A stretch of DNA of 64,000 nt from an uncultured Ruminococcus sp. GTDB taxonomy: Bacteria; Bacillota; Clostridia; Oscillospirales; Acutalibacteraceae. The notes below the pieces were generated by a model. That model was not told where the DNA came from. It saw only the letters and a list, made by a program, of their open reading frames with translations, and did no database searches. Below are positions 1-17,122 of this stretch, piece by piece. The position numbers and the translations under genes are program-made. The stretch spans positions 53 to 64,052 of the forward strand of contig CAZPOG010000001.1 of assembly GCA_964588105.1 (NCBI GenBank), written 5' to 3'. How positions within the stretch are numbered: the stretch's first letter is position 1; each line of letters starts with the position of its first letter.

Positions 1-65
1 AAGTTTTTATACTTTCACCTCAAAATCTGTTAAAATAAAAATGATTATCTTTTTTGAGGTGTAAT

Positions 66-974
66 ATGCTATATTATTTTGATTCATCAAATGTGTTTCT
101 CTCAACAATGAGATCCACCAAGAACCTATCAGATAAAACAATCATAGCTTATCATTCAGATTTAATGGATTTTTGCCGGTTTATCGGTGACAGTGATATT
201 GCAGAAGATACCATTCTTGACTATGTGGAGCATCTATGTAACAAGAAGCTAAAGGACAGTACGATTAACCGCAAGCTCATTGTGCTGAAAATGTTCTTTG
301 AATATCTATTTCAAAACCGCTATATCAATCAAAACTATTACTTATCTCATAAGTTCAAGTTCAAGAAAGAACGGAAGCTGCCGAAAACATTGACAGTAAA
401 AGAAGTGACCAAACTCATTGATTATCTAACAAATCAAAAGGAGAATGCATCCACAGTATTCTCTAAGTGGAAAAGCGCTCGCAACTTAGCCTTAATAGAC
501 GTTCTGATTAGCACCGGAATTAGGGTAGCCGAGGCATCCGCAATATCTATTAATGATATTGCCATGACCGAACGAGTGATTCTGATCCATGGTAAGGGGC
601 GCAAGCAAAGACTGATATACATCTCCTGTCAGGAAACATGGGATAATCTGAAAAATTGGATAAAACTCAGAAAGTCAATGAACCTCCCTACCGATAAGCT
701 GTTTCTCAATCGATCCGGAAAACAACTCAGTATCCACGGAATAGAGTATATATTTTACTCTGCAAGAGATTTGTGCGGAATCAATTCAAACGCCACCCCA
801 CATTATTTGCGGCATACATTTGCAACTAATTTATTAGCGAATGGAGCAGATCTCCGTTCAGTACAAGAAATCCTCGGACACAGCAGCATATCCACGACAG
901 AAATCTACACAGAGGTTACAGTTGAAAGAAAAAAGCAAGTTCTGAAAAAGTATAATTATCGAAACAAAATCTAG
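66..974 (+). CDS. XerC/D-like tyrosine recombinase
   Basis: Catalytic set GIRVAE (R), GKG (K), HYLRHTFAT (HxxR), LGH, TEIYT (Y); GAGGT RBS before ATG 66. Confidence 0.93.
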   Translation: MLYYFDSSNVFLSTMRSTKNLSDKTIIAYHSDLMDFCRFIGDSDIAEDTILDYVEHLCNKKLKDSTINRKLIVLKMFFEYLFQNRYINQNYYLSHKFKFKKERKLPKTLTVKEVTKLIDYLTNQKENASTVFSKWKSARNLALIDVLISTGIRVAEASAISINDIAMTERVILIHGKGRKQRLIYISCQETWDNLKNWIKLRKSMNLPTDKLFLNRSGKQLSIHGIEYIFYSARDLCGINSNATPHYLRHTFATNLLANGADLRSVQEILGHSSISTTEIYTEVTVERKKQVLKKYNYRNKI

Positions 975-3044: not shown

Positions 3045-3860
3045 CTATTCCCACTCGCGTTGCATAATTTCGTCGCGTAAGAACAGTTTATTCTTTCCAT
3101 AAATTTTTATTGGATGGAGCTTATCTCTTTTAATCAGATCGTCAATGTTTTGTCGCGAACAATTCAATATATCTGCAGCCTCGGTAGAACTAACAACAGC
3201 TTGCTGAACAAAACTCGTAAAGTCATCAATACCTAAAGGTATCGTTTTTCCGGATTCATATATCTGTTCGTCGGTTATATTGATTACACTTCCCCAAGTC
3301 AGCCCATATCCTCCTGGCATAATCTTGACTTGATTAAATAGAGCTTTATCCGCATATCTGCGATTATGTTTAATAATACTTTCGAATTGCCTCTCAGCGT
3401 TATAAACTTTTGTTTTACCATCTCTGAAAAACACAATTATCTTATACGTCTCCAGCGGAACAACATATTCTATCTTTTTTTTATAACGTTTCTTAAAATC
3501 CTTCGGTAACTCAGTTTGTTTTAGCGGAACAAGATAGCAATCATCTTGTTCGCATCTTCCTTGTGATAACATCAGGAGTTCATATTCATCATAGGTTTTC
3601 AGTCCGTTATCCCTTAAGATCTGACCGATATTCTGTCTGTCTGATGGGACAATCCTTTGTTGTACCCAAATTTTACTCCAATATGAATTTACGGTGTATT
3701 GTCCTTCTTTTACAAATGAAGAAAGAATAATCGGAACATCCCAAGGATCGCTGTCTTCCGGCAGCTCAATATAAAACTTTTTTGCCTTTTCATAATAGAT
3801 AAGATAGGCTAAGTTTTTGTTTGTTTGATCATATTCGTCTCGAATTGCAAAAATCTTCGT
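3045..3860 (-). CDS. HipA-partner protein: HipS/Couple_hipA-like N-domain + DUF2442-like + HTH; apparent ACG start
   Basis: Frame is open well beyond the tracked ATG (3572). It reads (M)KIFAIRDE...RIVPSDRQNIGQIL..GLKTYDEYELL; RBS AAGGTGG precedes ACG at 3860; C-terminal HTH STEAADILNCSRQNI. Confidence 0.65.
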   Translation of the reverse strand, partial: TKIFAIRDEYDQTNKNLAYLIYYEKAKKFYIELPEDSDPWDVPIILSSFVKEGQYTVNSYWSKIWVQQRIVPSDRQNIGQILRDNGLKTYDEYELLMLSQGRCEQDDCYLVPLKQTELPKDFKKRYKKKIEYVVPLETYKIIVFFRDGKTKVYNAERQFESIIKHNRRYADKALFNQVKIMPGGYGLTWGSVINITDEQIYESGKTIPLGIDDFTSFVQQAVVSSTEAADILNCSRQNIDDLIKRDKLHPIKIYGKNKLFLRDEIMQREWE

Positions 3861-4647
3861 AATAACACCACCTTTTCCAAATCATATTCCAAATCTTGTT
3901 CTGATAGTTCGCGGGAAGTACATCGTCTAAACCATCAAGAATAATTTGCCGGGCAGATTCCTTTAATTGGTTGATCTTTGGAAGCTTTTCTACAGGGATC
4001 AGTTTAAGATTCTCGTAAGCTGACCTGGATCCGACATAACATTGAACCGGTTTATCTCCCATTACATCAAACTTTTCGAGCAGATCATCCGTCTTAGCAG
4101 AGCACACCAAAGAAAGTCCGTTATCGAATATCGGCGCCAGACGAATGGCTTTTGCTTTTGAATCCTGTAAGACTTCAATATTTGCTCCGTGCCGGTCCCT
4201 GTTCAGTATAAGAAAATCAACAATCAACATTTGATAAATATAGTCTTCCCAACCGTATCTGATACAGAACTCCAGTTTCGTTTCACCATCCACTTTATTT
4301 TTTTCGTAAAAAGTATCAAGAGCCACTTTGGATTCTCCGCGTTTTCTGAAGTTTTCAGATGCACAAAGATAGGTTGAATAAATCTTGGAATCAATTAAAA
4401 CATCTGCATATATCAGTTGATATGGAAGATGTTCTACTCCAAGAATGGTTAACAGCCTGTCTACAATAATCTCGTTAATTGATTCATGACCGATTATCCC
4501 TCTAATTGAATCATAATCCGATAACTTATAATAGGTTTTTTGATTGCCTATTTCTTCATAGGCTTTTAAAAAAGATCCCGCTGTCCCCGATGAATGGCGA
4601 ATCTTACTCCAAGTTAAATATGTTAAATCCTGCTTTTCCAAAGCCAT
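3829..4647 (-). CDS. HipA-like Ser/Thr kinase (C-terminal kinase domain)
   Basis: VDFLILNRDRHGAN catalytic loop and LAPIFDNGLSL Mg-binding motif. Confidence 0.8.
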   Translation of the reverse strand: MALEKQDLTYLTWSKIRHSSGTAGSFLKAYEEIGNQKTYYKLSDYDSIRGIIGHESINEIIVDRLLTILGVEHLPYQLIYADVLIDSKIYSTYLCASENFRKRGESKVALDTFYEKNKVDGETKLEFCIRYGWEDYIYQMLIVDFLILNRDRHGANIEVLQDSKAKAIRLAPIFDNGLSLVCSAKTDDLLEKFDVMGDKPVQCYVGSRSAYENLKLIPVEKLPKINQLKESARQIILDGLDDVLPANYQNKIWNMIWKRWCYYEDFCNSRRI

Positions 4648-4685: not shown

Positions 4686-4714
4686 ATTATATACAAACAC
4701 TTGCTATATGTCAA
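4686..4714 (-). promoter_or_regulatory. consensus sigma70 promoter of the HipA-like operon
   Basis: TTGACA-17-TATAAT on the minus strand. Confidence 0.85.
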
Positions 4715-4786: not shown

Positions 4787-7700
4787 TTATGATAGTAAAA
4801 ACTCAACACAATCAAGTAACCGCTCAAACAAGTTAAGCGTTATTGTTTTATTATCAAGCTCACCGTTGATTTTGATTAGCTCACAGAATCCATCATGACC
4901 TCCGCCGCAATCCAATAAATAATTCATCATTTCATTTTTAGATTTTGAATTTTTTAGAGCACATACCGTTGTCATCCAAAAGTATTCGCTGTTGACGCAA
5001 AAATACGTATTGCTTGGATAGTAACATTTTTTCATCTGTTCGATAATTTTGCTGATATCACCACACAGCTCCAGTGACTTATCAATTAACAGTTTATTTA
5101 TTTCAATTGTATCCAGTACGGCAACACTCTTGGTTTTGTCAATGAAATCAAACAGTTCTTCCCTATTGTCAACTGCAGTTAATACTTCAAAACTATTCAT
5201 TCTCTCTTTTTTCACAACCGAATAGGGCAAATACTCTTTTAAATCCACATTCACCTCTTCCCTATTTATCAAACATAGTTTAGCATATACATCATATAAC
5301 TCCTTTGATAAGCTTCTCTCCCATCCTTCTTTTACCATCAGATCAATCTCTTTACGTGCTTTGCGATAGAAACCATTTTTGATAGTTTTCGAATAATAAT
5401 CAGTATCTGCTACCCTCAAAAACAGCTCAATTCTTTTATAATAGTAATCCAATTCCACTCTTTGCTTCATTCTATCAATATCAGGATGAATCCTACTGAT
5501 ACAAGTTTGAACACTTTCGATTTTTCTTCCTCTTTTGATTAATTCCAGAGCAAATTGGAAATGCAGTTGATTATATACAGTATAGATATGACCGATCTGA
5601 TTATAACAGTATTCCGCAGCGTTGAAATCATACTGAAGTAGCAAATCCAATAACTCACCGTATAAATTATTTTCAATATGATATTGAGCCATTGATTTTG
5701 CAAAACTAAGAAGTCTATCAATATAGCTTTTCATTTCTGCCAATGACACCCAATGCTTCCTGAGAACAACTTTAAGCGCTTCAACTATCTGTTGATCACA
5801 AAGTGTATCATTTCTATTATTCAGCCTCATAAAGCTCTTGCTGATACCATCCAGCAAAGTTCTATATGAATATAAGCCGTCTTGATCAGATGTAATATAA
5901 GAAAGCATAAACAACTGATCACCGGTGCTCTCAAAACTACTATCACTAAACGAATGATCCATCAATCCATTGATGACTGATATACTCACTGTTTGATTAA
6001 ATTGATTCGAGCTCAGCCTTTTGAGCACATGAAAAACAACAAGTTGTTTTTCTTTATCCAATCTATCAGTCAAATAGTCTATTACGGAAGTGTGTTCAAC
6101 AGAATCTGTTGATAATACTTTCCCGATAAGAATCAGGATATAATAACTACCTTCTGTTTGTGTCTTCCACTTAAGCAAAGCATACTTAAAAAACTCTTGT
6201 TCAGTAATAACACCCTTTAATAATTTGTAATAACTAATATAAACGCTTGCATATTTTGTGAGTTCTTCATCTACATAGCTTGCATAGTTTTCACAAGTAC
6301 AGATTAGAAAAGATACGAAATCTGAAAGCTCCTTATATAACACCGAATAGCTTTTAAACTCTTTCGCACTTAAGTAGTTATTGAGATACGTAAGTTCTTT
6401 TTCAGACAATTCAATGCCAATCACCCGCTTCAGAGCGATGCATACAACGGCTTCAAATGAATCGTTATCTATCACGCCTAATAAAGCAGACATTAATGCT
6501 TTCTTCACCGGACCTTCCCCGAGAATTACAGATAAGCACTCCGGTCGGCAACAAGAAAAAGCAAATACCGACAATTGATTGATCGATAATCTTCCGATAA
6601 CTTCGGCGCATTTTTGCTGATTATATAATATCAAATTATAAAATAATGCACATGTATAATAAACCTGCGAAGAGATATTCTTTTCCCACTCTGATAATTC
6701 AATTGGCATTCCAAGAATACGGTCTATCACCTGATCTACATTTTGTAATTCAGAAATCAAATCGATATACAATTGACTATACCAGAACAAAAAACTGTCT
6801 TCGTATGAAACATCACGGAAATAATAGCGTTTTTTCGACGCCAATTTCCTAATTAATAAATACTCTTCTTTCAATTGAGGAAACCACTGCAGTTTATTAT
6901 ATTTGCATAACAATGACACCAGAAGAGTCATCATCAAATAATCTCTTCTAAGAGAATTTTTATGATAAGAATTTTCTTTCGGAAGAGTTTCGATGATTCT
7001 TTTCGGAATTTCATAGAAAAACCTATAAATAGGTAACCCCTTGTTCTCCACAGCATTGATCAGTATTTCTTTCGGTAAAGCAGCAATCGCATAGACTATC
7101 CAAGTTGACCAGCAATATAGATCATTGTCGACGCCCCATGCGCTATCTTTTCCCAAGTATACATTGAACAGTCCGCCTTGCATCGCCAAAGAAATATCCT
7201 TTTCCTTCACTGCTTTTCTATGTATGTACGGCATCAGCATACTGTCAAACAGATCATAGTTAATAATGATATTATGCTCCCGTAAATAGCCTGAATTTTG
7301 TTTCATCTGCTCTTCAATGCACAGCATTGTAAAATACTCAGCATATCTTCTGTGTCTATATGAATAAACTATCGCATTGTTAGGAGTATTGGAATCAAAA
7401 AACACATCGACTAAATAAGAAAAAATACGATTTACAGCTTGATAATCACATTTGGGAAACATATGTAATATCAATTCTTCAACCTCCTGCCGTTTAAAGC
7501 TATAGCGATCATTTTCAAATAAGAATAATGATAGAATTTTATTAATTGAAATGATCGATTCACTTATCGGCGCAGGAAGATTCAGAGTTTCAAGATTCTT
7601 TTTATGATTGATATCATTTAATAAAGCGTTGACGCTGATACCTATCAAATCGCTCAAGCCGGTACTGCTGTCTATCTCATTAATATGATTCCATAGTAAT

Positions 7701-8824
7701 ACAAGTGTTAAGACGTCCGAGATTTTTTCATATATACTGCTATCTTTCTTGACAAGCTCATTCAATTTTCTCTTTTTATCGTCATTGTGTTTATTTTTGA
7801 AGTATCCGTCAATTTGCTCCTTGTTAAGCTCGTTAATACTGTATTCCGATATAGAAGGGTACAGTACCTTCAGAGCAGTTTTATGATAGCTGTATAATCT
7901 GGAGGAGATAATCACCTTTTTTGTAGTTTCTTTCTCAACCAACTCTTCGATAAACTGTAACGACGATGTCATTTCACTTTCAGAAATCTCATCCAAACCA
8001 TCCAGCAAATAGATAAAGTTTTGATTTGTTATATCCTTAGTTGCTAAGGCAACTGCATTTCGAATATTCCCGTTGTTTAAATTGATAAACAGACATAATG
8101 CGCCCAACCGTTCAACAGCTGCCTTTTGCTTGATTTCAGTTGGTTCAAAATACCCTCCGAAAACATTCTGAATGTGTCTCATTAACACACTCTTTCCGCT
8201 GCCCGCCACGCCAGATACCAAAAACAGTTTTTCAGCAGAATCTAACACATTCTTGGTATAACTCTCGACGTCTAACTCATTTTCATGATTAGACAAATTC
8301 AGCTTGACATATTCTTTTGATCGGATCAATGTATCTATTTTGATACTCTTGCTGTCCGACAGCTTTTTTATGATATCAACTTCTCCAAAGTACAATTCCG
8401 CCAGATCAAGATTCGACGGTTGATTTAATACTATTCTAAAATGATTAGGTAAAAACCACTTTACGGCAACATTTTTACTCTTGCATATTTCTTCTATGTT
8501 TTGAGCCTGATCAGAAGATGTCTTTGCCTCTAAATTCAAGTAAATGATTATACAATCCAAATTGCTATTGCGATCTAACGCTTTTTCCACAGAAGACCTA
8601 ATGTTTTTATAACTGATTTTCTTGTCAAAGAATTTTGATTGAAAACCGTAGTATTTTCCTCTGTACTTTATTGGTTCTGTTTCCAGACCCACTTGATTAA
8701 AATCCGTTCTTATTCCGTCTTTTTGCTTGTACTTACGGCAGAACAAATGATAGCATAAAGTCTCAAACGCTGCGCTGCAGTCGGTGTGCAACAGTGCAAA
8801 TCGGTTCCAATTAATATCAAACAT
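4787..8824 (-). CDS. Avs-like STAND NTPase with N-terminal Mrr/PD-(D/E)XK-like nuclease (Avs4-like N-terminus)
   Basis: N-terminus NWNRF..AFETLCYHLFC..NQVGLETEPI..GFQSKFF; Walker A GVAGSGKS; Walker B LLDGLDE; long helical C-terminus. GAGGT RBS favours ATG 8824. Confidence 0.8.
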   Translation of the reverse strand: MFDINWNRFALLHTDCSAAFETLCYHLFCRKYKQKDGIRTDFNQVGLETEPIKYRGKYYGFQSKFFDKKISYKNIRSSVEKALDRNSNLDCIIIYLNLEAKTSSDQAQNIEEICKSKNVAVKWFLPNHFRIVLNQPSNLDLAELYFGEVDIIKKLSDSKSIKIDTLIRSKEYVKLNLSNHENELDVESYTKNVLDSAEKLFLVSGVAGSGKSVLMRHIQNVFGGYFEPTEIKQKAAVERLGALCLFINLNNGNIRNAVALATKDITNQNFIYLLDGLDEISESEMTSSLQFIEELVEKETTKKVIISSRLYSYHKTALKVLYPSISEYSINELNKEQIDGYFKNKHNDDKKRKLNELVKKDSSIYEKISDVLTLVLLWNHINEIDSSTGLSDLIGISVNALLNDINHKKNLETLNLPAPISESIISINKILSLFLFENDRYSFKRQEVEELILHMFPKCDYQAVNRIFSYLVDVFFDSNTPNNAIVYSYRHRRYAEYFTMLCIEEQMKQNSGYLREHNIIINYDLFDSMLMPYIHRKAVKEKDISLAMQGGLFNVYLGKDSAWGVDNDLYCWSTWIVYAIAALPKEILINAVENKGLPIYRFFYEIPKRIIETLPKENSYHKNSLRRDYLMMTLLVSLLCKYNKLQWFPQLKEEYLLIRKLASKKRYYFRDVSYEDSFLFWYSQLYIDLISELQNVDQVIDRILGMPIELSEWEKNISSQVYYTCALFYNLILYNQQKCAEVIGRLSINQLSVFAFSCCRPECLSVILGEGPVKKALMSALLGVIDNDSFEAVVCIALKRVIGIELSEKELTYLNNYLSAKEFKSYSVLYKELSDFVSFLICTCENYASYVDEELTKYASVYISYYKLLKGVITEQEFFKYALLKWKTQTEGSYYILILIGKVLSTDSVEHTSVIDYLTDRLDKEKQLVVFHVLKRLSSNQFNQTVSISVINGLMDHSFSDSSFESTGDQLFMLSYITSDQDGLYSYRTLLDGISKSFMRLNNRNDTLCDQQIVEALKVVLRKHWVSLAEMKSYIDRLLSFAKSMAQYHIENNLYGELLDLLLQYDFNAAEYCYNQIGHIYTVYNQLHFQFALELIKRGRKIESVQTCISRIHPDIDRMKQRVELDYYYKRIELFLRVADTDYYSKTIKNGFYRKARKEIDLMVKEGWERSLSKELYDVYAKLCLINREEVNVDLKEYLPYSVVKKERMNSFEVLTAVDNREELFDFIDKTKSVAVLDTIEINKLLIDKSLELCGDISKIIEQMKKCYYPSNTYFCVNSEYFWMTTVCALKNSKSKNEMMNYLLDCGGGHDGFCELIKINGELDNKTITLNLFERLLDCVEFLLS

Positions 8825-8848
8825 ATCATACCTCATATCATTTGATTT

Positions 8849-11740
8849 CTATATTCTGATCTTTCTTTGAAGTAAATCGCGGACTCTCTCGTAATACCGC
8901 ATCAGTATGTCGTTTAGCGGCTTTTGATGATTCAGTATATCGAGCAGAATCATATCTGCATTCAACGCATTATAAGCTTTTATCCATTTACGATAATTGT
9001 AATTCTGCAAACACGGATCTTGATAGGAGTCCAGTAATTCCCAATGAAAGAGTTTTTCATCCGGACCTTCGGGATATCTCAGTGTAAAACATTGCATGAT
9101 ATCTCTGAAATACTTCTTGTCATTTTCATATGGCAGACATTGATGCTCATTTAAAATATAACGCTGATACTGTTCGATTGCTTTATCTAAAAGAATGTTA
9201 CGAAGTTCTGAATTATCCAATCTTTCAGCAACACACAGCAGTAAAGCTGCATTAGTCTTCTTTTCACTCACACGAAGATCATCAAGTATTTTCTTCTGAT
9301 CGTCAAACGGTATCAGACTATTATTACAAATCCTTTCAATGATACCAACCAATGCGGTAAACAGATCCTCCATCTTTTCTTCTTCCATTTTCAGAGGTCG
9401 TGAAAATACAAGTTCCGAAAGAATAAATACTGACTGTTCAAGCTGCGTTTTATTATTTTGCTGCCCGATCATCGCAAGAATGATATCGGCATCTTGCGTA
9501 TCATAAAGGATCTTGGCTCCTAGCTCGTGTAAAAAATCCCATGAAGAGCTGACAAGCTCTTTGTAAAAAATCTCGTCGAATCCCTTATGCGCAGACCTTT
9601 CATAGATGAACGACAGCATCAAAGGAGATTTAACCTCTTCCATTAATTTCAGATAGTATGGAAAGTCCAGATTCAACAGTAACCGATAGATACAAATCCA
9701 AAATCGGTCTCCTTGCTGATAAAACACGCTCTTATCTTTGTGTACGTCACGAAAAGCAGAAACTGATTTTATCTTTTTGTTAAGTAAAGCCCAATAGTAG
9801 TACTCGTCAGAATATATATTTTTATGAGTATGCCGGTTTTCCATATTGGGAGCATCTTCTGTTATCTGCGACTTTATCTTTTCCTTTAATCCCGGAAAAT
9901 TACCGATTAACGGACTCAGATCGGTATAATAATGACAACTGTTGTATAATGCGTCTCCTAACGCAAAAAGCGCTTTTTGAGGATTATCATCCCACCTCTC
10001 CCATATTTCTCTGACAATTTGTTCCCACATTTGATCATTCGTAGTATAATCCGAACTTTCAAGACTCTCAGATGTTATAAATCCTTTCTCCGCACATTTT
10101 TTCAGTGCAAAAGACAAATCATCTTCACCGCTGGCAAACATCGGAAAATAAGCATTATGATCGTTTTTGTCAACGGGATCAGGATGGACTGAAATTTGGA
10201 TATCTGCAGGGAACAGTTCTTGAATAGAGATCATCTCCGTTATTGGAGCATCTTTCTGATACACTTTATTGCTAAGCAGGTAAAGATACTCTTCGACAGA
10301 CTTCAGAACAACATATTCCAACGGAACAACCGCGAACGGAAAAAACTGTCCGGCAGAATTCAATGAGTTGCTGAGCATAAAACCATCCTTCCTATCATTC
10401 TCATAGTACCTAATCAGATATCTATCATGGAACGCTCTGTTCTCACCTCTGTAAACATTGATTATCTCACAGTTTTTATATATCAGATCGGTATTCTTTT
10501 TCAGACAATCCGTAAACTCACTTAGGCTGTTTGTGCCGTCGTCTTTATCCGTTTCCTTTTGCGGGATCGAAGTGATGATTTTTACCTTTGCCTGTGTATT
10601 CCCGATCCTGATAAGCAGCTTCTCTATGGATTCCGACGTAAAGTACGGATCGGCTAAAACAACGCTTTTTATCTCTTTTTCTTCAATATACTCTCTGATT
10701 TTAATGAAGCTGTCTATTTCTCCGCTTTTGTCGGATACTTTAGGAACAAAACAACCTTTGGCAGTTCCATCATAATCCGAAAACAACCTTCTCCCCTGTT
10801 GATAAGAATCATACCAAAAAGGCTCTTCGTTTGAAATAACGGTTTTCTGAACATGGCCGATTGTCGCTGTCTGTTCAAGCTCATCAATACGCTTGACCAG
10901 ACGCTGAGAGCTTCTACGCAGTTTAGCAGTCCACTTATCCCTAACAACACGTTTTTTCTGTGTATAGATATTCAGTAATGAGTTCATGATATAATTCATG
11001 TAGAATTGATATACTGGTCTTCCATCTGAATCCCATATATTTATCTTAAATGCTGAAATAACATCATCACTTTCAAATTCGATTATATCCTGAAAACCTT
11101 TCATCACTTTCAGTTCATTTCGAACAATATGCCCGTAATGGAACAACTCACAATTCACAGATAAATCTTCTGAGATTTTTTCTGTTTTTTCAATCAATAA
11201 GCATATCCCGTTGTTATTTACCCTAAAGCTATTATAGTATTTTAGCGGCTCAAAGAATTCAACGTTCCCTATTCTATCTCCATTTTTCCTAAAATCTATA
11301 CCACACTCCGCCTGAACGACGTCAAGCAACCGATTGACATTACAAAACTCATCTTTGAAATTCTGATACGAAATGCTTTTCTTTAAGGATTCTAAGATTT
11401 CTTCTTTATCAGTCTGCCAGTAGGTTGTACGGTAGAAAGTCTGATCCACCGGAGCGGTTTTAATCAACTCGGACGTTGCAGAGTTAATTAGCGGATTACC
11501 GGGTTGAAGATTTAATTCAATATTGTATCTGCCGGCTTTATAATGATTAAAACTTGTAATAGCACAAATAAAGTCGTCCTTATTCTTTTCATTTACAACA
11601 GTGCAGCAACAAACGATAAACTTTATTTCTGTTTGTGAAGATTTCCAGTCGGAAACATTCTGATCCGTCGGAACACAATAACCATAGATGAGTTTCGTTT
11701 CTTCTTTTGTATTCAAAATAAGTTTCATATAGTAATTCAA
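8849..11740 (-). CDS. large protein with central PLD-like (VPA1262-like) domain
   Basis: LADPYF ... FHDRYLI ... GFMLSNSLN motif set. TTG start at 11740 inferred from GGAGGG RBS and promoter position. Confidence 0.65.
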   Translation of the reverse strand: MNYYMKLILNTKEETKLIYGYCVPTDQNVSDWKSSQTEIKFIVCCCTVVNEKNKDDFICAITSFNHYKAGRYNIELNLQPGNPLINSATSELIKTAPVDQTFYRTTYWQTDKEEILESLKKSISYQNFKDEFCNVNRLLDVVQAECGIDFRKNGDRIGNVEFFEPLKYYNSFRVNNNGICLLIEKTEKISEDLSVNCELFHYGHIVRNELKVMKGFQDIIEFESDDVISAFKINIWDSDGRPVYQFYMNYIMNSLLNIYTQKKRVVRDKWTAKLRRSSQRLVKRIDELEQTATIGHVQKTVISNEEPFWYDSYQQGRRLFSDYDGTAKGCFVPKVSDKSGEIDSFIKIREYIEEKEIKSVVLADPYFTSESIEKLLIRIGNTQAKVKIITSIPQKETDKDDGTNSLSEFTDCLKKNTDLIYKNCEIINVYRGENRAFHDRYLIRYYENDRKDGFMLSNSLNSAGQFFPFAVVPLEYVVLKSVEEYLYLLSNKVYQKDAPITEMISIQELFPADIQISVHPDPVDKNDHNAYFPMFASGEDDLSFALKKCAEKGFITSESLESSDYTTNDQMWEQIVREIWERWDDNPQKALFALGDALYNSCHYYTDLSPLIGNFPGLKEKIKSQITEDAPNMENRHTHKNIYSDEYYYWALLNKKIKSVSAFRDVHKDKSVFYQQGDRFWICIYRLLLNLDFPYYLKLMEEVKSPLMLSFIYERSAHKGFDEIFYKELVSSSWDFLHELGAKILYDTQDADIILAMIGQQNNKTQLEQSVFILSELVFSRPLKMEEEKMEDLFTALVGIIERICNNSLIPFDDQKKILDDLRVSEKKTNAALLLCVAERLDNSELRNILLDKAIEQYQRYILNEHQCLPYENDKKYFRDIMQCFTLRYPEGPDEKLFHWELLDSYQDPCLQNYNYRKWIKAYNALNADMILLDILNHQKPLNDILMRYYERVRDLLQRKIRI

Positions 11741-11791
11741 ATCATTTCCCTCCGTGTGCATTACAAAAACTGTTGGAATATGTTTATATTT

Positions 11792-11820
11792 ATTATACAA
11801 CGCTTTACAACAAATGTAAA
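11792..11820 (-). promoter_or_regulatory. promoter of the PLD-like/STAND operon
   Basis: TTTACA-17-(TG)TATAAT on the minus strand. Confidence 0.75.
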
Positions 11821-11846
11821 CCAAACACTTTCATAGGAGTATATTA

Positions 11847-11887
11847 AACCGCCAGAAATTGTGTTGTCCACACAATTTCTGGCGGTT
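11847..11887 (-). terminator. 18-bp perfect hairpin downstream of the HAD gene
   Basis: AACCGCCAGAAATTGTGT / ACACAATTTCTGGCGGTT with a 5-nt loop. Confidence 0.75.
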
Positions 11888-11977
11888 CATACTATGCAAG
11901 TGCCTTGGTTATAAATAATGTGTTTAATCAAAAATCACGATTCTTTCTAATTATTCCTAAGATTTTTTATATCTGCA

Positions 11978-13159
11978 TCAGTCTTCGGTTTCCAATTCTT
12001 TCTTTATTTCTTCTGCGTAATCGTCCCCAAGCCCGTATTGAGACAGCAAGTTTGTATAGAAGCCGAAAACATCTTCATCCTTTAGGATCCAGTTAACTTG
12101 TGAATTATGTACTCCGATTCTGAATAAAGATTTTGCTTGTTCTTCCGACCAATTGTGGTATTGTTCCATTTCGCTGATAATCGTATGTGTATTGGCAAAG
12201 TTTGCGCTGTTATCCAAAGCGAGAATCAAACTCTCTTTCTTTTTCTCGTCCTCACTCTTAGGATTTTTGATCCCTTCATCTTTCACTTCTTCTTTATTAG
12301 AAAAGTGGATACTCTCGAGCTTTTCGTTGGCAGCTGTCCTATCGATAATCGATTTGACCAATTGATCCAGTTCGCTGCCCTCGGAATAATCGGCCGGAGC
12401 AAAGTATTTGATCCGATTATCGGTTATCATCTTATAAACTTTCTTTTTATCGCACGTCTTGGGATTATATACCCCTATGGAATGTCCTCCATATGTATTT
12501 ACCAACTTCATACAGGGAATATCCGTATCACTGTCACCGATATAAATCATATTTCTGAACGGTACGCGCATCTTCTCCGGAGGAATATATTCATTCACAC
12601 CTTGGTCATTAACATCTAATACACCCTTTTCAATTCTGAACAAAAACTGTGTTTTATTAGTGTAATTGATAACCTGAGCAGGCCAAACGGCTATGCCTCG
12701 ATCGTTGTAATAAAACGAACTTGCATAGATCTTCTTAAAACAACCTTTTTGCGCTACACTTGTTCCCTCTATCATTTCCTTCAATCCTGATGAAATAATA
12801 TAATGCTCAACTATAACGCCTTGTTGATTCCCGTAAAAACGAATTCTGTCAAACCATTCTTCAACACCGGGGAACAATGCAACTTTTGCACCATAGTCCA
12901 TCAGTGTTTCTTTTTTAAATATAACCGCTCCTTCAGCTTCCTGTTTCATTTTGTACATGTATGCAAGGTTTTGGTCCATATCATTATCTTCAGCCAGTTT
13001 ATTTGACTGGGCCCAGAAGTCCTTAACATCAAAACCAACGCTTTGAATATAACCCTGCGCTTGCATATCATCGGGAGAAAGTGTTTTATCAAAGTCATAG
13101 CAAATCGCTAAAACAGGATAGTTTTCTTTTTTCTCTCGCTTAAATGTTTTTGTGCCCAT
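11978..13159 (-). CDS. HAD-family hydrolase with ~90-aa C-terminal extension
   Basis: Motif I CYDFDKT, motif II IISSG, motif IV YIGDSDTD. Confidence 0.85.
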   Translation of the reverse strand: MGTKTFKREKKENYPVLAICYDFDKTLSPDDMQAQGYIQSVGFDVKDFWAQSNKLAEDNDMDQNLAYMYKMKQEAEGAVIFKKETLMDYGAKVALFPGVEEWFDRIRFYGNQQGVIVEHYIISSGLKEMIEGTSVAQKGCFKKIYASSFYYNDRGIAVWPAQVINYTNKTQFLFRIEKGVLDVNDQGVNEYIPPEKMRVPFRNMIYIGDSDTDIPCMKLVNTYGGHSIGVYNPKTCDKKKVYKMITDNRIKYFAPADYSEGSELDQLVKSIIDRTAANEKLESIHFSNKEEVKDEGIKNPKSEDEKKKESLILALDNSANFANTHTIISEMEQYHNWSEEQAKSLFRIGVHNSQVNWILKDEDVFGFYTNLLSQYGLGDDYAEEIKKELETED

Positions 13160-16371: not shown

Positions 16372-16710
16372 ATGTGTACACAGAATGAAGCCGTCGTTAT
16401 ACTGCGTGAAGTATACGAGGGCTGTGCAGCCATCTTCGGAAGCATCAAAGAAGCCTATCTCTACGGCTCCTACGCGCGGGGCGATTATCATGAGGAATCC
16501 GACGTCGATATTCTTTTGACAGTCGATCAGCCTCAATTGGTTATCTCGAAGCACCGCATGGATATTGCGCGATTATCCTCAGACCTCAGTTTACAGCATG
16601 ATATCACCGTATCGATCAGCGTCAAGCCCGCTGAACAGTTCGAAAGATATAACACGGTTCTGCCGTTTTATCAGAATGTTGTCAGAGAGGGGATCAAATA
16701 TGCAAGCTGA
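16372..16710 (+). CDS. minimal nucleotidyltransferase (MNT) antitoxin
   Basis: LYGSYARGD...ESDVDIL motif; GGAGG RBS. Confidence 0.9.
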   Translation: MCTQNEAVVILREVYEGCAAIFGSIKEAYLYGSYARGDYHEESDVDILLTVDQPQLVISKHRMDIARLSSDLSLQHDITVSISVKPAEQFERYNTVLPFYQNVVREGIKYAS

Positions 16711-17122
16711 AGATTGGAAAGCGATATCGAAAATCAGACTGGAGCGCGCGATAGAGTTCTACGAGGACGCGGTCGCGCTGTATAACCAAGAAAGATACAG
16801 AAGCGCAGCCAGCAGATTGTATTTTGCTGTATTCCACGCCATGCGCGCGGTACTGGCACTGGACGGAATCGACCGCAAGCACCACAGTGGGATCATCTCA
16901 GAGTTCCGCAGATTGTATGTAAAAACCGGTATCTTTGACAGAGAAGCGTCCGGCATCATCGCATCGGTATCCCTCATGCGCCACGACAGCGACTATGACG
17001 ATTACATCCCGATCGAGAAAGAGGATCTGGAAGAAATGCTTCCCCAAGTCGAAAAGCTGATCACATCGGTCAAGGAGTATCTGGAGCCGATTTTGGCAGA
17101 AGGTAATCAATCTGCCGAATAG
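16700..17122 (+). CDS. HEPN domain toxin
   Basis: ATG 16700 overlaps the MNT stop; SRLYFAVFHA, KHHSGII, RHDSDY typical of HEPN partners. Confidence 0.85.
   Translation: MQAEDWKAISKIRLERAIEFYEDAVALYNQERYRSAASRLYFAVFHAMRAVLALDGIDRKHHSGIISEFRRLYVKTGIFDREASGIIASVSLMRHDSDYDDYIPIEKEDLEEMLPQVEKLITSVKEYLEPILAEGNQSAE

Follow-up and report, generated by a model that had tools for sequence, protein, structure and literature searches.

Adjacent Juno-family and Avs4-type nuclease-STAND genes in a defense island of an uncultured Ruminococcus are probably two stacked anti-phage systems

Closest described systems

The VPA1262 family was named Juno in a preprint of August 2026 that describes it as a single-gene anti-phage system of Gram-negative genera; VPA1262 from Vibrio parahaemolyticus and a homolog from Pantoea agglomerans each alone gave >100-fold protection in E. 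coli (bioRxiv 10.64898/2026.08.01.741415). The first of the two genes studied here (gene A), located in the window (the whole 64,000-nucleotide stretch of uncultured Ruminococcus sp. DNA that was analyzed), resembles Juno in that it matches the full-length family model, scores above the cut-off of the N-terminal model, is of similar size (~960 aa vs ~1000 aa), and lies, as Juno does, in a mobile defense island. Unlike Juno, it is hosted by a member of the Bacillota, falls under the cut-off of the full-length model NF040699 (236 vs 325 bits), and is followed after 12–24 nt by a STAND gene (gene B). Gene A can also be compared with the PLD nucleases (Nuc/NucT, Tdp1), with which it shares the PLD fold (residues 352–545) and the H-x-[KR] ... 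S-N motif, although Arg takes the place of the catalytic Lys (H466-D-R468), with one motif copy per protein.

Avs4 (AVAST type 4; EcAvs4, PDB 8DGF) is a single-gene nuclease-STAND sensor of the phage portal protein. Gene B has a nuclease homologous to that of Avs4 up to the Walker A motif and the same order of nuclease, STAND ATPase, and (presumed) helical sensor, and its homologs are likewise single-gene. Unlike Avs4, however, gene B is ~220 aa shorter, and its ATPase and C-terminus lack a sequence match to Avs4 and are predicted to fold as near to Avs3 and the eukaryotic NLRC4, NLRP3, and NOD2 as to Avs4. In 2023, Kibby et al. reportedly described bacterial NACHT (bNACHT) proteins, which are NLR-related and anti-phage. 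Set beside these by description, gene B has a comparable layout (N-terminal effector and C-terminal helical sensor) and a NLRC4/NLRP3/NOD2-like predicted fold, whereas its Pfam NACHT score (22.6 vs 26.7 bits) is below the cut-off.

Organization of the locus

The two genes correspond to the two long minus-strand open reading frames, 8849..11824 (991 aa from the first TTG) and 4787..8836 (Table 1). They are set in an integrase-linked island, the flanking genes match the PADLOC defense candidates PDC-S34 (1e-197) and PDC-M03A, and other defense-type genes occur in the region. The listed start of gene A, TTG 11824, precedes the −35 box, while TTG 11740 has GGAGGG 7 nt upstream and coincides with the position at which homologs begin (MNYY); judged from the sequence, TTG 11740 is more likely to be the start. 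The gene A stop (TAG 8849–8851) is separated by 12 nt from ATG 8836 of gene B and by 24 nt from ATG 8824. The latter is preceded by GAGG, fits the M-x-x-INW start of homologs, and appears the likelier start. In the relatives L004, L106, and L112 the spacer is 35–37 nt.

The predicted promoter of gene A matches 11/12 positions and ranks second among the sites of the 7.8-kb region, in which promoter-like sites overall are not enriched (32 vs 31.8 expected from shuffles). A scan between genes A and B revealed neither a terminator-like site nor a promoter of comparable quality, and for an internal promoter of gene B only weak sites were found (9123–9096 and 9348–9278), of a kind that occurs at the shuffled-sequence rate. 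Both genes are probably read from one promoter. The upstream gene stops at 11978 and is followed by a hairpin whose perfect stem of ~18–19 bp encloses a 5-nt loop; UUUAAUAU comes next, and the fold energy is −33.8 kcal/mol (z = −7.5; 0/200 shuffles equally good). This hairpin would end the PDC-S34-like upstream gene and insulate the pair. At the other end, a perfect (12/12) promoter, conserved in the relatives L108 and L109 directly after a STAND relic, serves the next operon (a PDC-M03A-like 272-aa gene and HTH/DUF2442); hence, the pair ends there. The preliminary description of this DNA had proposed a promoter of the pair's own, an insulating 18-bp hairpin upstream, and genes ~12–25 nt apart, and the layout found here agrees with it on each point.

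Table 1. Features of the locus, in window coordinates
Feature	Coordinates	Strand	Description and basis
Gene A	8849..11740	-	Juno/VPA1262-family protein, ~963 aa from TTG 11740; frame open from 11824
Gene A N-terminal region, two beta-sandwich domains (predicted)	10820..11737	-	Residues ~30–335 (P0001 numbering); AF2, Foldseek
Gene A PLD-fold domain	10190..10771	-	Residues 352–545; invariant columns, Foldseek
Gene A C-terminal alpha-helical repeat region (predicted)	8855..10156	-	Residues ~557–990; AF2, invariant columns
Gene B	4787..8836	-	Avs-type nuclease-STAND, 1349 aa
Gene B Avs4-type (Mrr-like) nuclease domain	8357..8836	-	Residues 1–160; profile match, invariant columns
Gene B STAND/NACHT-like NTPase module	7157..8269	-	Residues ~190–560; Pfam, invariant columns, AF2/Foldseek
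Gene B C-terminal all-helical repeat domain (predicted)	4787..7156	-	Residues 561–1349 and stop codon; AF2 secondary structure
Sigma-70-type promoter (predicted)	11792..11820	-	TTTACA-17-TATAAT; drives gene A, probably gene B as well
Terminator-like hairpin	11841..11892 (core ~11846–11887)	-	RNA fold, sequence reading
Intergenic spacer	8825..8848	-	Without terminator; sequence reading
Next-operon promoter (predicted)	4686..4714	-	TTGACA-17-TATAAT; boundary element

Gene A: a Juno relative with a PLD-fold core

Gene A scored 192.3 bits against the N-terminal domain model NF040700 (cut-off 80, residues 148–517; 194 bits in a genome-level search) and 235.8 bits (E = 8.3e-70) against the full-length model NF040699. 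Since the latter alignment is full-length (positions 7–1021 of 1026) yet below the cut-off, gene A appears to be a divergent relative of the VPA1262 family rather than a core member. A homolog search recovered 104 sequences. Neither Pfam nor PADLOC (2023 release, older than Juno) yielded a match, even with all 27 aligned homologs scanned at E up to 5, and when the PDB was searched by sequence, single queries had no match and the full gene A profile returned only noise.

The AF2 model divides the protein into three parts. Residues ~30–335 (pLDDT mostly 76–91) match Fn3/Ig-like domains in Foldseek with a probability of 1.0. The middle part, the PLD-fold domain, contains the motifs ADPYF, FHDRY, and LSNSLNS, which are invariant in the 27 homologs (ADP-F, 391–395; H466-D-R468; L484-S-N-S-L-N-S490) and represent an HxR variant of the HxK motif. 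Foldseek matched this domain to the PLD-family nuclease NucT of H. pylori (6EHI; probability 1.00, TM 0.56 on target), a match that ranked 32nd in the search with the whole model, behind uninformative helical-repeat and beta-sandwich matches. A weak profile alignment also placed HDR..SNS on HTK..SNN of yeast Tdp1, at a value that is not significant (E = 0.36). The third part (residues ~557–990) is all helical (pLDDT mostly 80–95), contains few invariant positions, and may serve in sensing or regulation. These results confirm the ~960-aa VPA1262-like protein and the ADPY...FHDRY...SNS PLD-like core that had been read from the sequence earlier.

Gene B: an Avs4-type nuclease on a different body

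The N-terminus of gene B matches the Avs4 models of PADLOC (3.9e-33) and NCBIfam (1.1e-37), and a profile of the gene B family matches residues 1–249 of EcAvs4 (8DGF) with E = 3.6e-33. GFQSKF of gene B aligns with GWQSKF of Avs4, so that Q66 and K68 correspond to Avs4 Q63 and K65; E52, Q66, and K68 are invariant in 27 homologs. The matches span residues 5–223 of gene B and positions 1–226 (NCBIfam) or 1–229 (PADLOC, out of 1570) of the Avs4 models, and past residue ~225 none of PADLOC, NCBIfam, and 8DGF gave a sequence match to the Avs4 ATPase or sensor. An assignment of gene B to Avs4 proper was rejected (NF041815, 128.9 bits vs a cut-off of 1500). Hence, of the Avs4-like nuclease-STAND protein proposed earlier, the Avs4-type nuclease and the STAND ATPase stand, but the likeness to Avs4 in sequence is confined to the first ~225 residues.

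The NTPase module has invariant Walker A (G209-x2-GxGKS216) and Walker B (D279/D282/E283) motifs and an invariant R313, and scores above the Pfam cut-off for NPHP3_N (30.8 bits). Homologs of gene B are named "NACHT domain-containing protein" and have NACHT/NPHP3_N-type ATPase matches. Foldseek searches with the AF2 model (pLDDT 85.6, pTM 0.84) returned Avs3 (8DGC, 5.8e-8), NLRC4, NLRP3, and NOD2 at the top, then Avs4 (8DGF, 4.9e-6; TM 0.14). Residues 621–1000, within the helical C-terminus that is presumed to be the sensor, vary more than any other part of the protein; for example, identity to the homolog P0007 is 33% here and 62% in the nuclease. A search for the gene B family recovered 124 clusters of proteins, with members in Bacillota, Bacteroidota, Myxococcota, and other groups, indicating a sizeable uncatalogued family of Avs-like sensors in which the Avs4 nuclease is joined to an ATPase and a sensor unlike those of Avs4.

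Distribution of the two families

To assess co-occurrence, both families were cross-searched by HMM in 105 fetched loci, and were found together only in the window and L004. A VPA1262-like gene was present at 0/37 other STAND loci with ≥3 kb of upstream flank, and a STAND gene at 0/17 other VPA1262-like loci with ≥1.5 kb of downstream flank. Among 400 further genomes from the phylum, 10 encode VPA1262_N proteins, with heterogeneous neighbors and no STAND gene within 8 kb (0/10). Of 301 genomes from the taxonomic family to which the window belongs, a single one, the source of the window itself, carries a VPA1262-like gene, which shows this gene to be rare and horizontally acquired. The preliminary description had suggested a new two-gene STAND architecture with a PLD-like partner and had named co-occurrence across genomes as a check; the two families occur together in one syntenic clade only, and the suggestion is not sustained.

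Each family also has a varied neighborhood. Solitary full-length STAND homologs with 39–45% identity (L001–L003) have no VPA1262-like neighbor; the homolog in Petroclostridium adjoins SIR2-HerA and a group II intron, and that in C. difficile adjoins Shedu. Homologs of gene A with 26–34% identity are found beside Lit-like, type I R-M, or unrelated genes, never beside STAND, and no recurrent partner was seen for VPA1262-like homologs across 21 fetched loci and 10 further genomes. Literature searches on EruA/NACHT and on Avs4 accessory genes returned nothing relevant.

Retention and loss of the pair within its clade

The pair is present in the window, L004, L106, L107, and L112 (the last three fetched after the 105-locus cross-search), which form one clade with 68–94% identity, the same synteny, and an integrase-linked island. 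At least five contigs, obtained from different samples, thus retain it with a spacer of 12–37 nt. Both proteins have diverged to a similar extent (94/74/73/70% identity for STAND and 91/71/71/69% for the Juno-like protein), as would also be expected of a functional unit, and a within-clade dN/dS of 0.17–0.23 was obtained for gene A.

In two further members of the clade, L108 and L109, a common deletion of ~3.9 kb has removed the STAND gene except for its first ~48 codons, which persist as a 5′ relic. In L108 the Juno-like gene beside this relic is intact (958 aa), while in L109 it carries a nonsense mutation at codon 370, a single case that could hint at dependence. Between L108 and L109 the Juno-like dN/dS is 0.27. 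A reading of this value as continued selection after STAND loss was set aside: recombination is likely, because the differences cluster in two tracts (codons ~450–550 and ~650–750) while the adjacent relic is nearly identical (3/310 nt differ).

Interpretation and proposed mechanism

Genes A and B are, in our assessment, very probably two autonomous single-gene anti-phage systems, stacked head to tail and probably co-transcribed, because each family works alone elsewhere. In the structure models, each protein also appears complete in its architecture, combining an effector of its own with a variable helical region. We infer that the two genes lie close together because defense cargo was stacked and passed on jointly within one clade, and not because the partnership is obligate. 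Tight spacing and a common promoter in a defense island do not in themselves make a system, and comparative data, in which each gene is self-sufficient elsewhere, guard against over-calling.

It is common for several systems to accumulate in one defense island, and neighboring systems have been reported to act in synergy. The two mechanisms could accordingly be independent but co-regulated in a clade-specific operon whose protection is layered or synergistic; the two genes might, for instance, be directed at different phages or provide mutual backup against anti-defense proteins. Such facultative coupling would fit the operon layout and co-inheritance, but no sequence feature requires synergy and one lineage has lost STAND cleanly; we consider it improbable. 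Equally doubtful is a welded clade operon acting as a unit, in which one protein gates or amplifies the other or the two give synergistic protection that neither gives alone; it would fit the joint inheritance with a short spacer and the broken Juno-like gene in one of the two contigs lacking STAND, and, if true, would provide the first example of a Juno-type partner for a STAND sensor. That the Juno-like PLD protein and the nuclease-STAND protein depend on each other, in a sensor–effector or regulator–effector relationship, is very unlikely. Such an obligate pair is suggested by the common promoter, the short spacer free of terminators, the block kept in the five clade loci, and the nonsense mutation that accompanies STAND loss in L109, but the families are apart outside the clade, Juno protects as a single gene, the nearest outside STAND homologs are solitary, L108 keeps an intact Juno-like gene without STAND, and an effector and a variable helical domain are already present in each protein. 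A non-defense role of one or both genes, as decaying cargo or in another cellular function, could be argued from the polysaccharide-synthesis surroundings of some VPA1262_N proteins but is extremely unlikely given that both frames are intact, gene A shows low dN/dS, catalytic and ATPase residues are invariant, and the integrase-linked island is full of defense-type genes.

If genes A and B are two independent systems, then by analogy with Avs3 and Avs4 the variable helical C-terminus of gene B may bind a phage protein, upon which the NACHT-like module would oligomerize in an ATP-dependent manner and bring together the Avs4-type nuclease domains (E52/Q66/K68), leading to DNA cutting and putatively to abortive infection. 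The PLD-fold domain of gene A is, at the level of fold, a likely effector acting on nucleic acids or phosphodiesters. Triggers, substrates, and an abortive outcome are thus proposals, while the domain architectures, the conservation of catalytic and ATPase residues, and the independent occurrence of the two families were observed. Its invariant HxR-type core provides mutational targets (H466, R468, and N486). Clear relatives of the Juno family exist in Clostridia of the gut and rumen type. Some Bacillota proteins with the VPA1262_N domain sit among polysaccharide-synthesis genes.

Organization of the gene pair and its island

The two neighbouring genes are probably autonomous defence genes, a divergent Juno-family (VPA1262-like) gene (gene A) and an uncatalogued Avs-like nuclease-STAND gene (gene B), which are stacked, probably transcribed together and, in one narrow clade, inherited as a pair. 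The preliminary description had proposed a new two-gene STAND system with gene A as the partner of gene B, a reading that failed the co-occurrence test, as the two families were found together only in that clade.

Both genes were recovered as long open frames on the minus strand, in agreement with the initial account, and the pair is part of an island in which genes are densely stacked (see table). The listed start of gene A (TTG 11824) was rejected because it lies upstream of the -35 box. TTG 11740 is the likely start, with GGAGGG 7 nt upstream and at the position where close homologs begin with MNYY, giving a protein of ~963 aa. Gene B most likely starts at its second ATG (8824), which is preceded by GAGG and where the M-x-x-INW start of its family matches; the spacer between the genes is therefore 12-24 nt, matching the ~12-25 nt first reported. 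The promoter and insulating hairpin claimed for the pair were also found. The hairpin, directly upstream of the promoter, is a perfect stem of ~18-19 bp (-33.8 kcal/mol, z = -7.5 versus shuffles) that closes the preceding gene, which encodes a HAD-like hydrolase resembling PDC-S34, a PADLOC candidate single-gene defence system. A scan of the intergenic region found no terminator-like site between gene A and gene B, and a perfect sigma-70 promoter, kept in relatives, opens the following operon and sets the boundary of the pair. Behind this promoter sit the gene for a 272-aa protein with no match in Pfam and then an HTH/DUF2442 gene. Elsewhere on the island, a small nucleotidyltransferase-like gene and the HEPN-domain gene that it overlaps look like an MNT/HEPN-type toxin-antitoxin pair.

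Features of the gene pair, its island and the STAND relic in related loci
Feature	Position	Strand	Basis
Gene A frame (P0001)	8849..11824	-	Long open frame
Gene B frame (P0002)	4787..8836	-	Long open frame
Promoter TTTACA-17-TATAAT	11820-11792	-	11/12 positions match
Promoter of next operon	4714-4686	-	Perfect, 12/12
PDC-S34-like gene, 393-aa HAD-like hydrolase	11978-13159	-	PADLOC full-length match, 1e-197
PDC-M03A-like 272-aa protein	3829-4647	-	PADLOC, best 8.8e-13
Nucleotidyltransferase-like gene overlapping HEPN-domain gene	16372-17122	+	PADLOC PDC-S09, 2.8e-21 for nucleotidyltransferase
Integrase	54-974		
STAND relic	L108:10878-11187; L109:9759-10068		DNA comparison

Gene A is a divergent Juno-family protein

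Gene A had no match in Pfam or PADLOC. The VPA1262-like assignment made earlier was borne out by the NCBIfam VPA1262_N_dom model (192 bits; cut-off 80) and by an end-to-end alignment with the full-length VPA1262 family model (236 bits, E = 8e-70), under the cut-off of 325 for that model. Judged from these matches, gene A is a divergent Juno-family protein, Juno being the name given to the VPA1262 family in a preprint of August 2026 (bioRxiv 10.64898/2026.08.01.741415). In that preprint, Juno proteins from Vibrio and Pantoea each reduced plaques more than 100-fold when expressed alone in E. coli, the restricted phages were T4, two BASEL phages and lambda-vir, and the distribution was given as among Gram-negative genera.

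An AlphaFold2 model based on 27 homologs (mean pLDDT 79) comprises two beta-sandwich domains, an alpha/beta domain (~352-545) and a helical-repeat C-terminus. Of the residues invariant among these homologs, almost all fall within the first 540, including A391-D-P-x-F395, H466-D-R468 and L484-S-N-S-L-N-S490. The model matched the PLD-family nuclease NucT (6EHI; Foldseek probability 1.0, TM 0.56 on the target), and the domain profile aligned HDR..SNS with HTK..SNN of yeast Tdp1, although not significantly (E = 0.36). Hence, the proposed PLD-like core is supported at the level of the fold, with Arg (HDR, an HxR-type motif) standing where PLD nucleases have the catalytic Lys (Tdp1 HTK).

Gene B is an Avs-like nuclease-STAND

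Residues 5-223 of gene B matched the Avs4 models of PADLOC (3.9e-33) and NCBIfam (1.1e-37), neither of which matched beyond residue 223, and a profile of 27 homologs matched residues 1-249 of EcAvs4 (8DGF; E = 3.6e-33), confirming the Avs4-like N-terminus noted previously. The GFQSKF motif aligned on GWQSKF of Avs4, and Q66/K68 therefore correspond to Avs4 Q63/K65. Invariant positions are E52, Q66, K68, Walker A (209-216), Walker B (D279/D282/E283) and R313. Membership of Avs4 proper was rejected, as the score of 129 bits fell short of the family cut-off (1500), with residues 5-223 alone matching.

Residues 151-1349 were modelled confidently (pLDDT 85.6, pTM 0.84), and the best Foldseek matches were, in order, Avs3 (5.8e-8), NLRC4/NLRP3/NOD2 and Avs4 (4.9e-6). 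Conservation is highest in the nuclease and lowest across residues 621-1000, where variability would be expected of a sensor. By analogy, gene B may work like an Avs/NLR-type sensor with an Avs4 effector, and its trigger would then be, as for Avs, a conserved structural or packaging protein of the phage. The homologs, which fell into 124 protein clusters, were labelled in their sources exclusively as hypothetical or NACHT domain-containing proteins; gene B is an uncatalogued Avs-like nuclease-STAND.

At two metagenome loci (L089:1027-5769, L101:619-5304), similarity to gene B is limited to the nuclease domain (~36-37% identity over ~160-235 residues), and the encoded bodies are longer (remainder ~1400 aa). 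These loci may represent Avs4 proper or a different family that has this effector.

Co-occurrence of the two families and inheritance of the pair

Co-occurrence across genomes had been named beforehand as the test of the two-gene reading. A set of 105 loci, among them 15 genome loci (VPA1262-like profile) and 80 metagenome loci (STAND profile), was cross-searched with HMMs of both families, which co-occurred in this set only in the window and in one other locus (L004). Outside the clade of the pair, 37 other STAND loci had 3 kb or more of upstream DNA, and none contained a VPA1262-like gene; of 17 other VPA1262-like loci with 1.5 kb or more downstream, none had a STAND. In individual checks, STAND homologs from Petroclostridium (45% identity) and C. 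difficile (42%) are solitary in other defence contexts, and no STAND stands beside VPA1262-like homologs at four loci (34, 31, 31 and 26% identity). Clustering of immediate same-strand neighbours revealed no recurrent partner of either family beyond near-identical lineages. A sample of 400 genomes across the phylum yielded 10 others with a VPA1262_N protein. None of these had a STAND within 8 kb (0/10), and among the neighbours were glycosyltransferases, asparagine synthase, an RNase T-like exonuclease, SIR2 and an M78 peptidase. Within the taxonomic family of the window, the VPA1262-like gene occurs in 1 of 301 genomes, the window's own.

The pair itself is present in the window, the contig of the homologous proteins P0003/P0123, L004, L106/L107 and L112, with all other copies 68-94% identical to the window. 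Every pair shares the same downstream block (a 270-aa PDC-M03A-like gene, DUF2442/HTH, a SLOG/YpsA gene and an integrase), while the upstream cargo varies between PDC-S34 (window), Shedu and others (L004, L112) and proteases (L108); this is a pattern of inheritance of one island end and not of independent assembly. Within the clade, the STAND is missing from L108 and L109/L110. A relic in L108 and L109 retains the ribosome-binding site and ~48 N-terminal codons (FDINWNRFVLLHSDYTKAVEALCYHLFCRK*), with the start codon lost. The ~3.9-kb deletion extends nearly to the stop and has an identical junction in the two loci; directly after it comes the conserved promoter of the next operon. Hence, the clade descends from an ancestor with the pair, and a single loss removed the STAND. 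In L108 the adjacent Juno-like gene remains intact (958 aa); in L109/L110 (L109:6885-9758) it is interrupted by a nonsense codon at residue 370, immediately behind ADPYF.

Facultative synergy between gene A and gene B, with which their operon-like layout and co-inheritance are compatible, is unlikely, the STAND having been lost cleanly in one lineage. An obligate partnership, to which the close spacing and the probably shared promoter would point, is somewhat less likely still, set against the zero counts outside the clade and an intact Juno-like gene next to a deleted STAND in L108.

L108 and L109 differ by ~4% in the Juno-like gene and at 3/310 nt in the relic. A dN/dS of 0.27 was considered as a sign of continued selection on this gene and set aside, since clustering of the differences points to recombination.

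Other Bacillota genomes carry VPA1262_N in different arrangements. In four (L127:7847-11121, L130:6561-9706, L131:7841-11118, L133:5927-9488), it lies on a ~500-555-aa ORF directly followed by an overlapping same-strand ORF of ~510-690 aa, an arrangement that may represent Juno split into two genes. In two more (L126:5451-11202, L129:4005-11564), 1100-aa VPA1262_N proteins are encoded among glycosyltransferase, UDP-glucose dehydrogenase and asparagine synthase genes, settings that are polysaccharide loci and not obvious defence islands.
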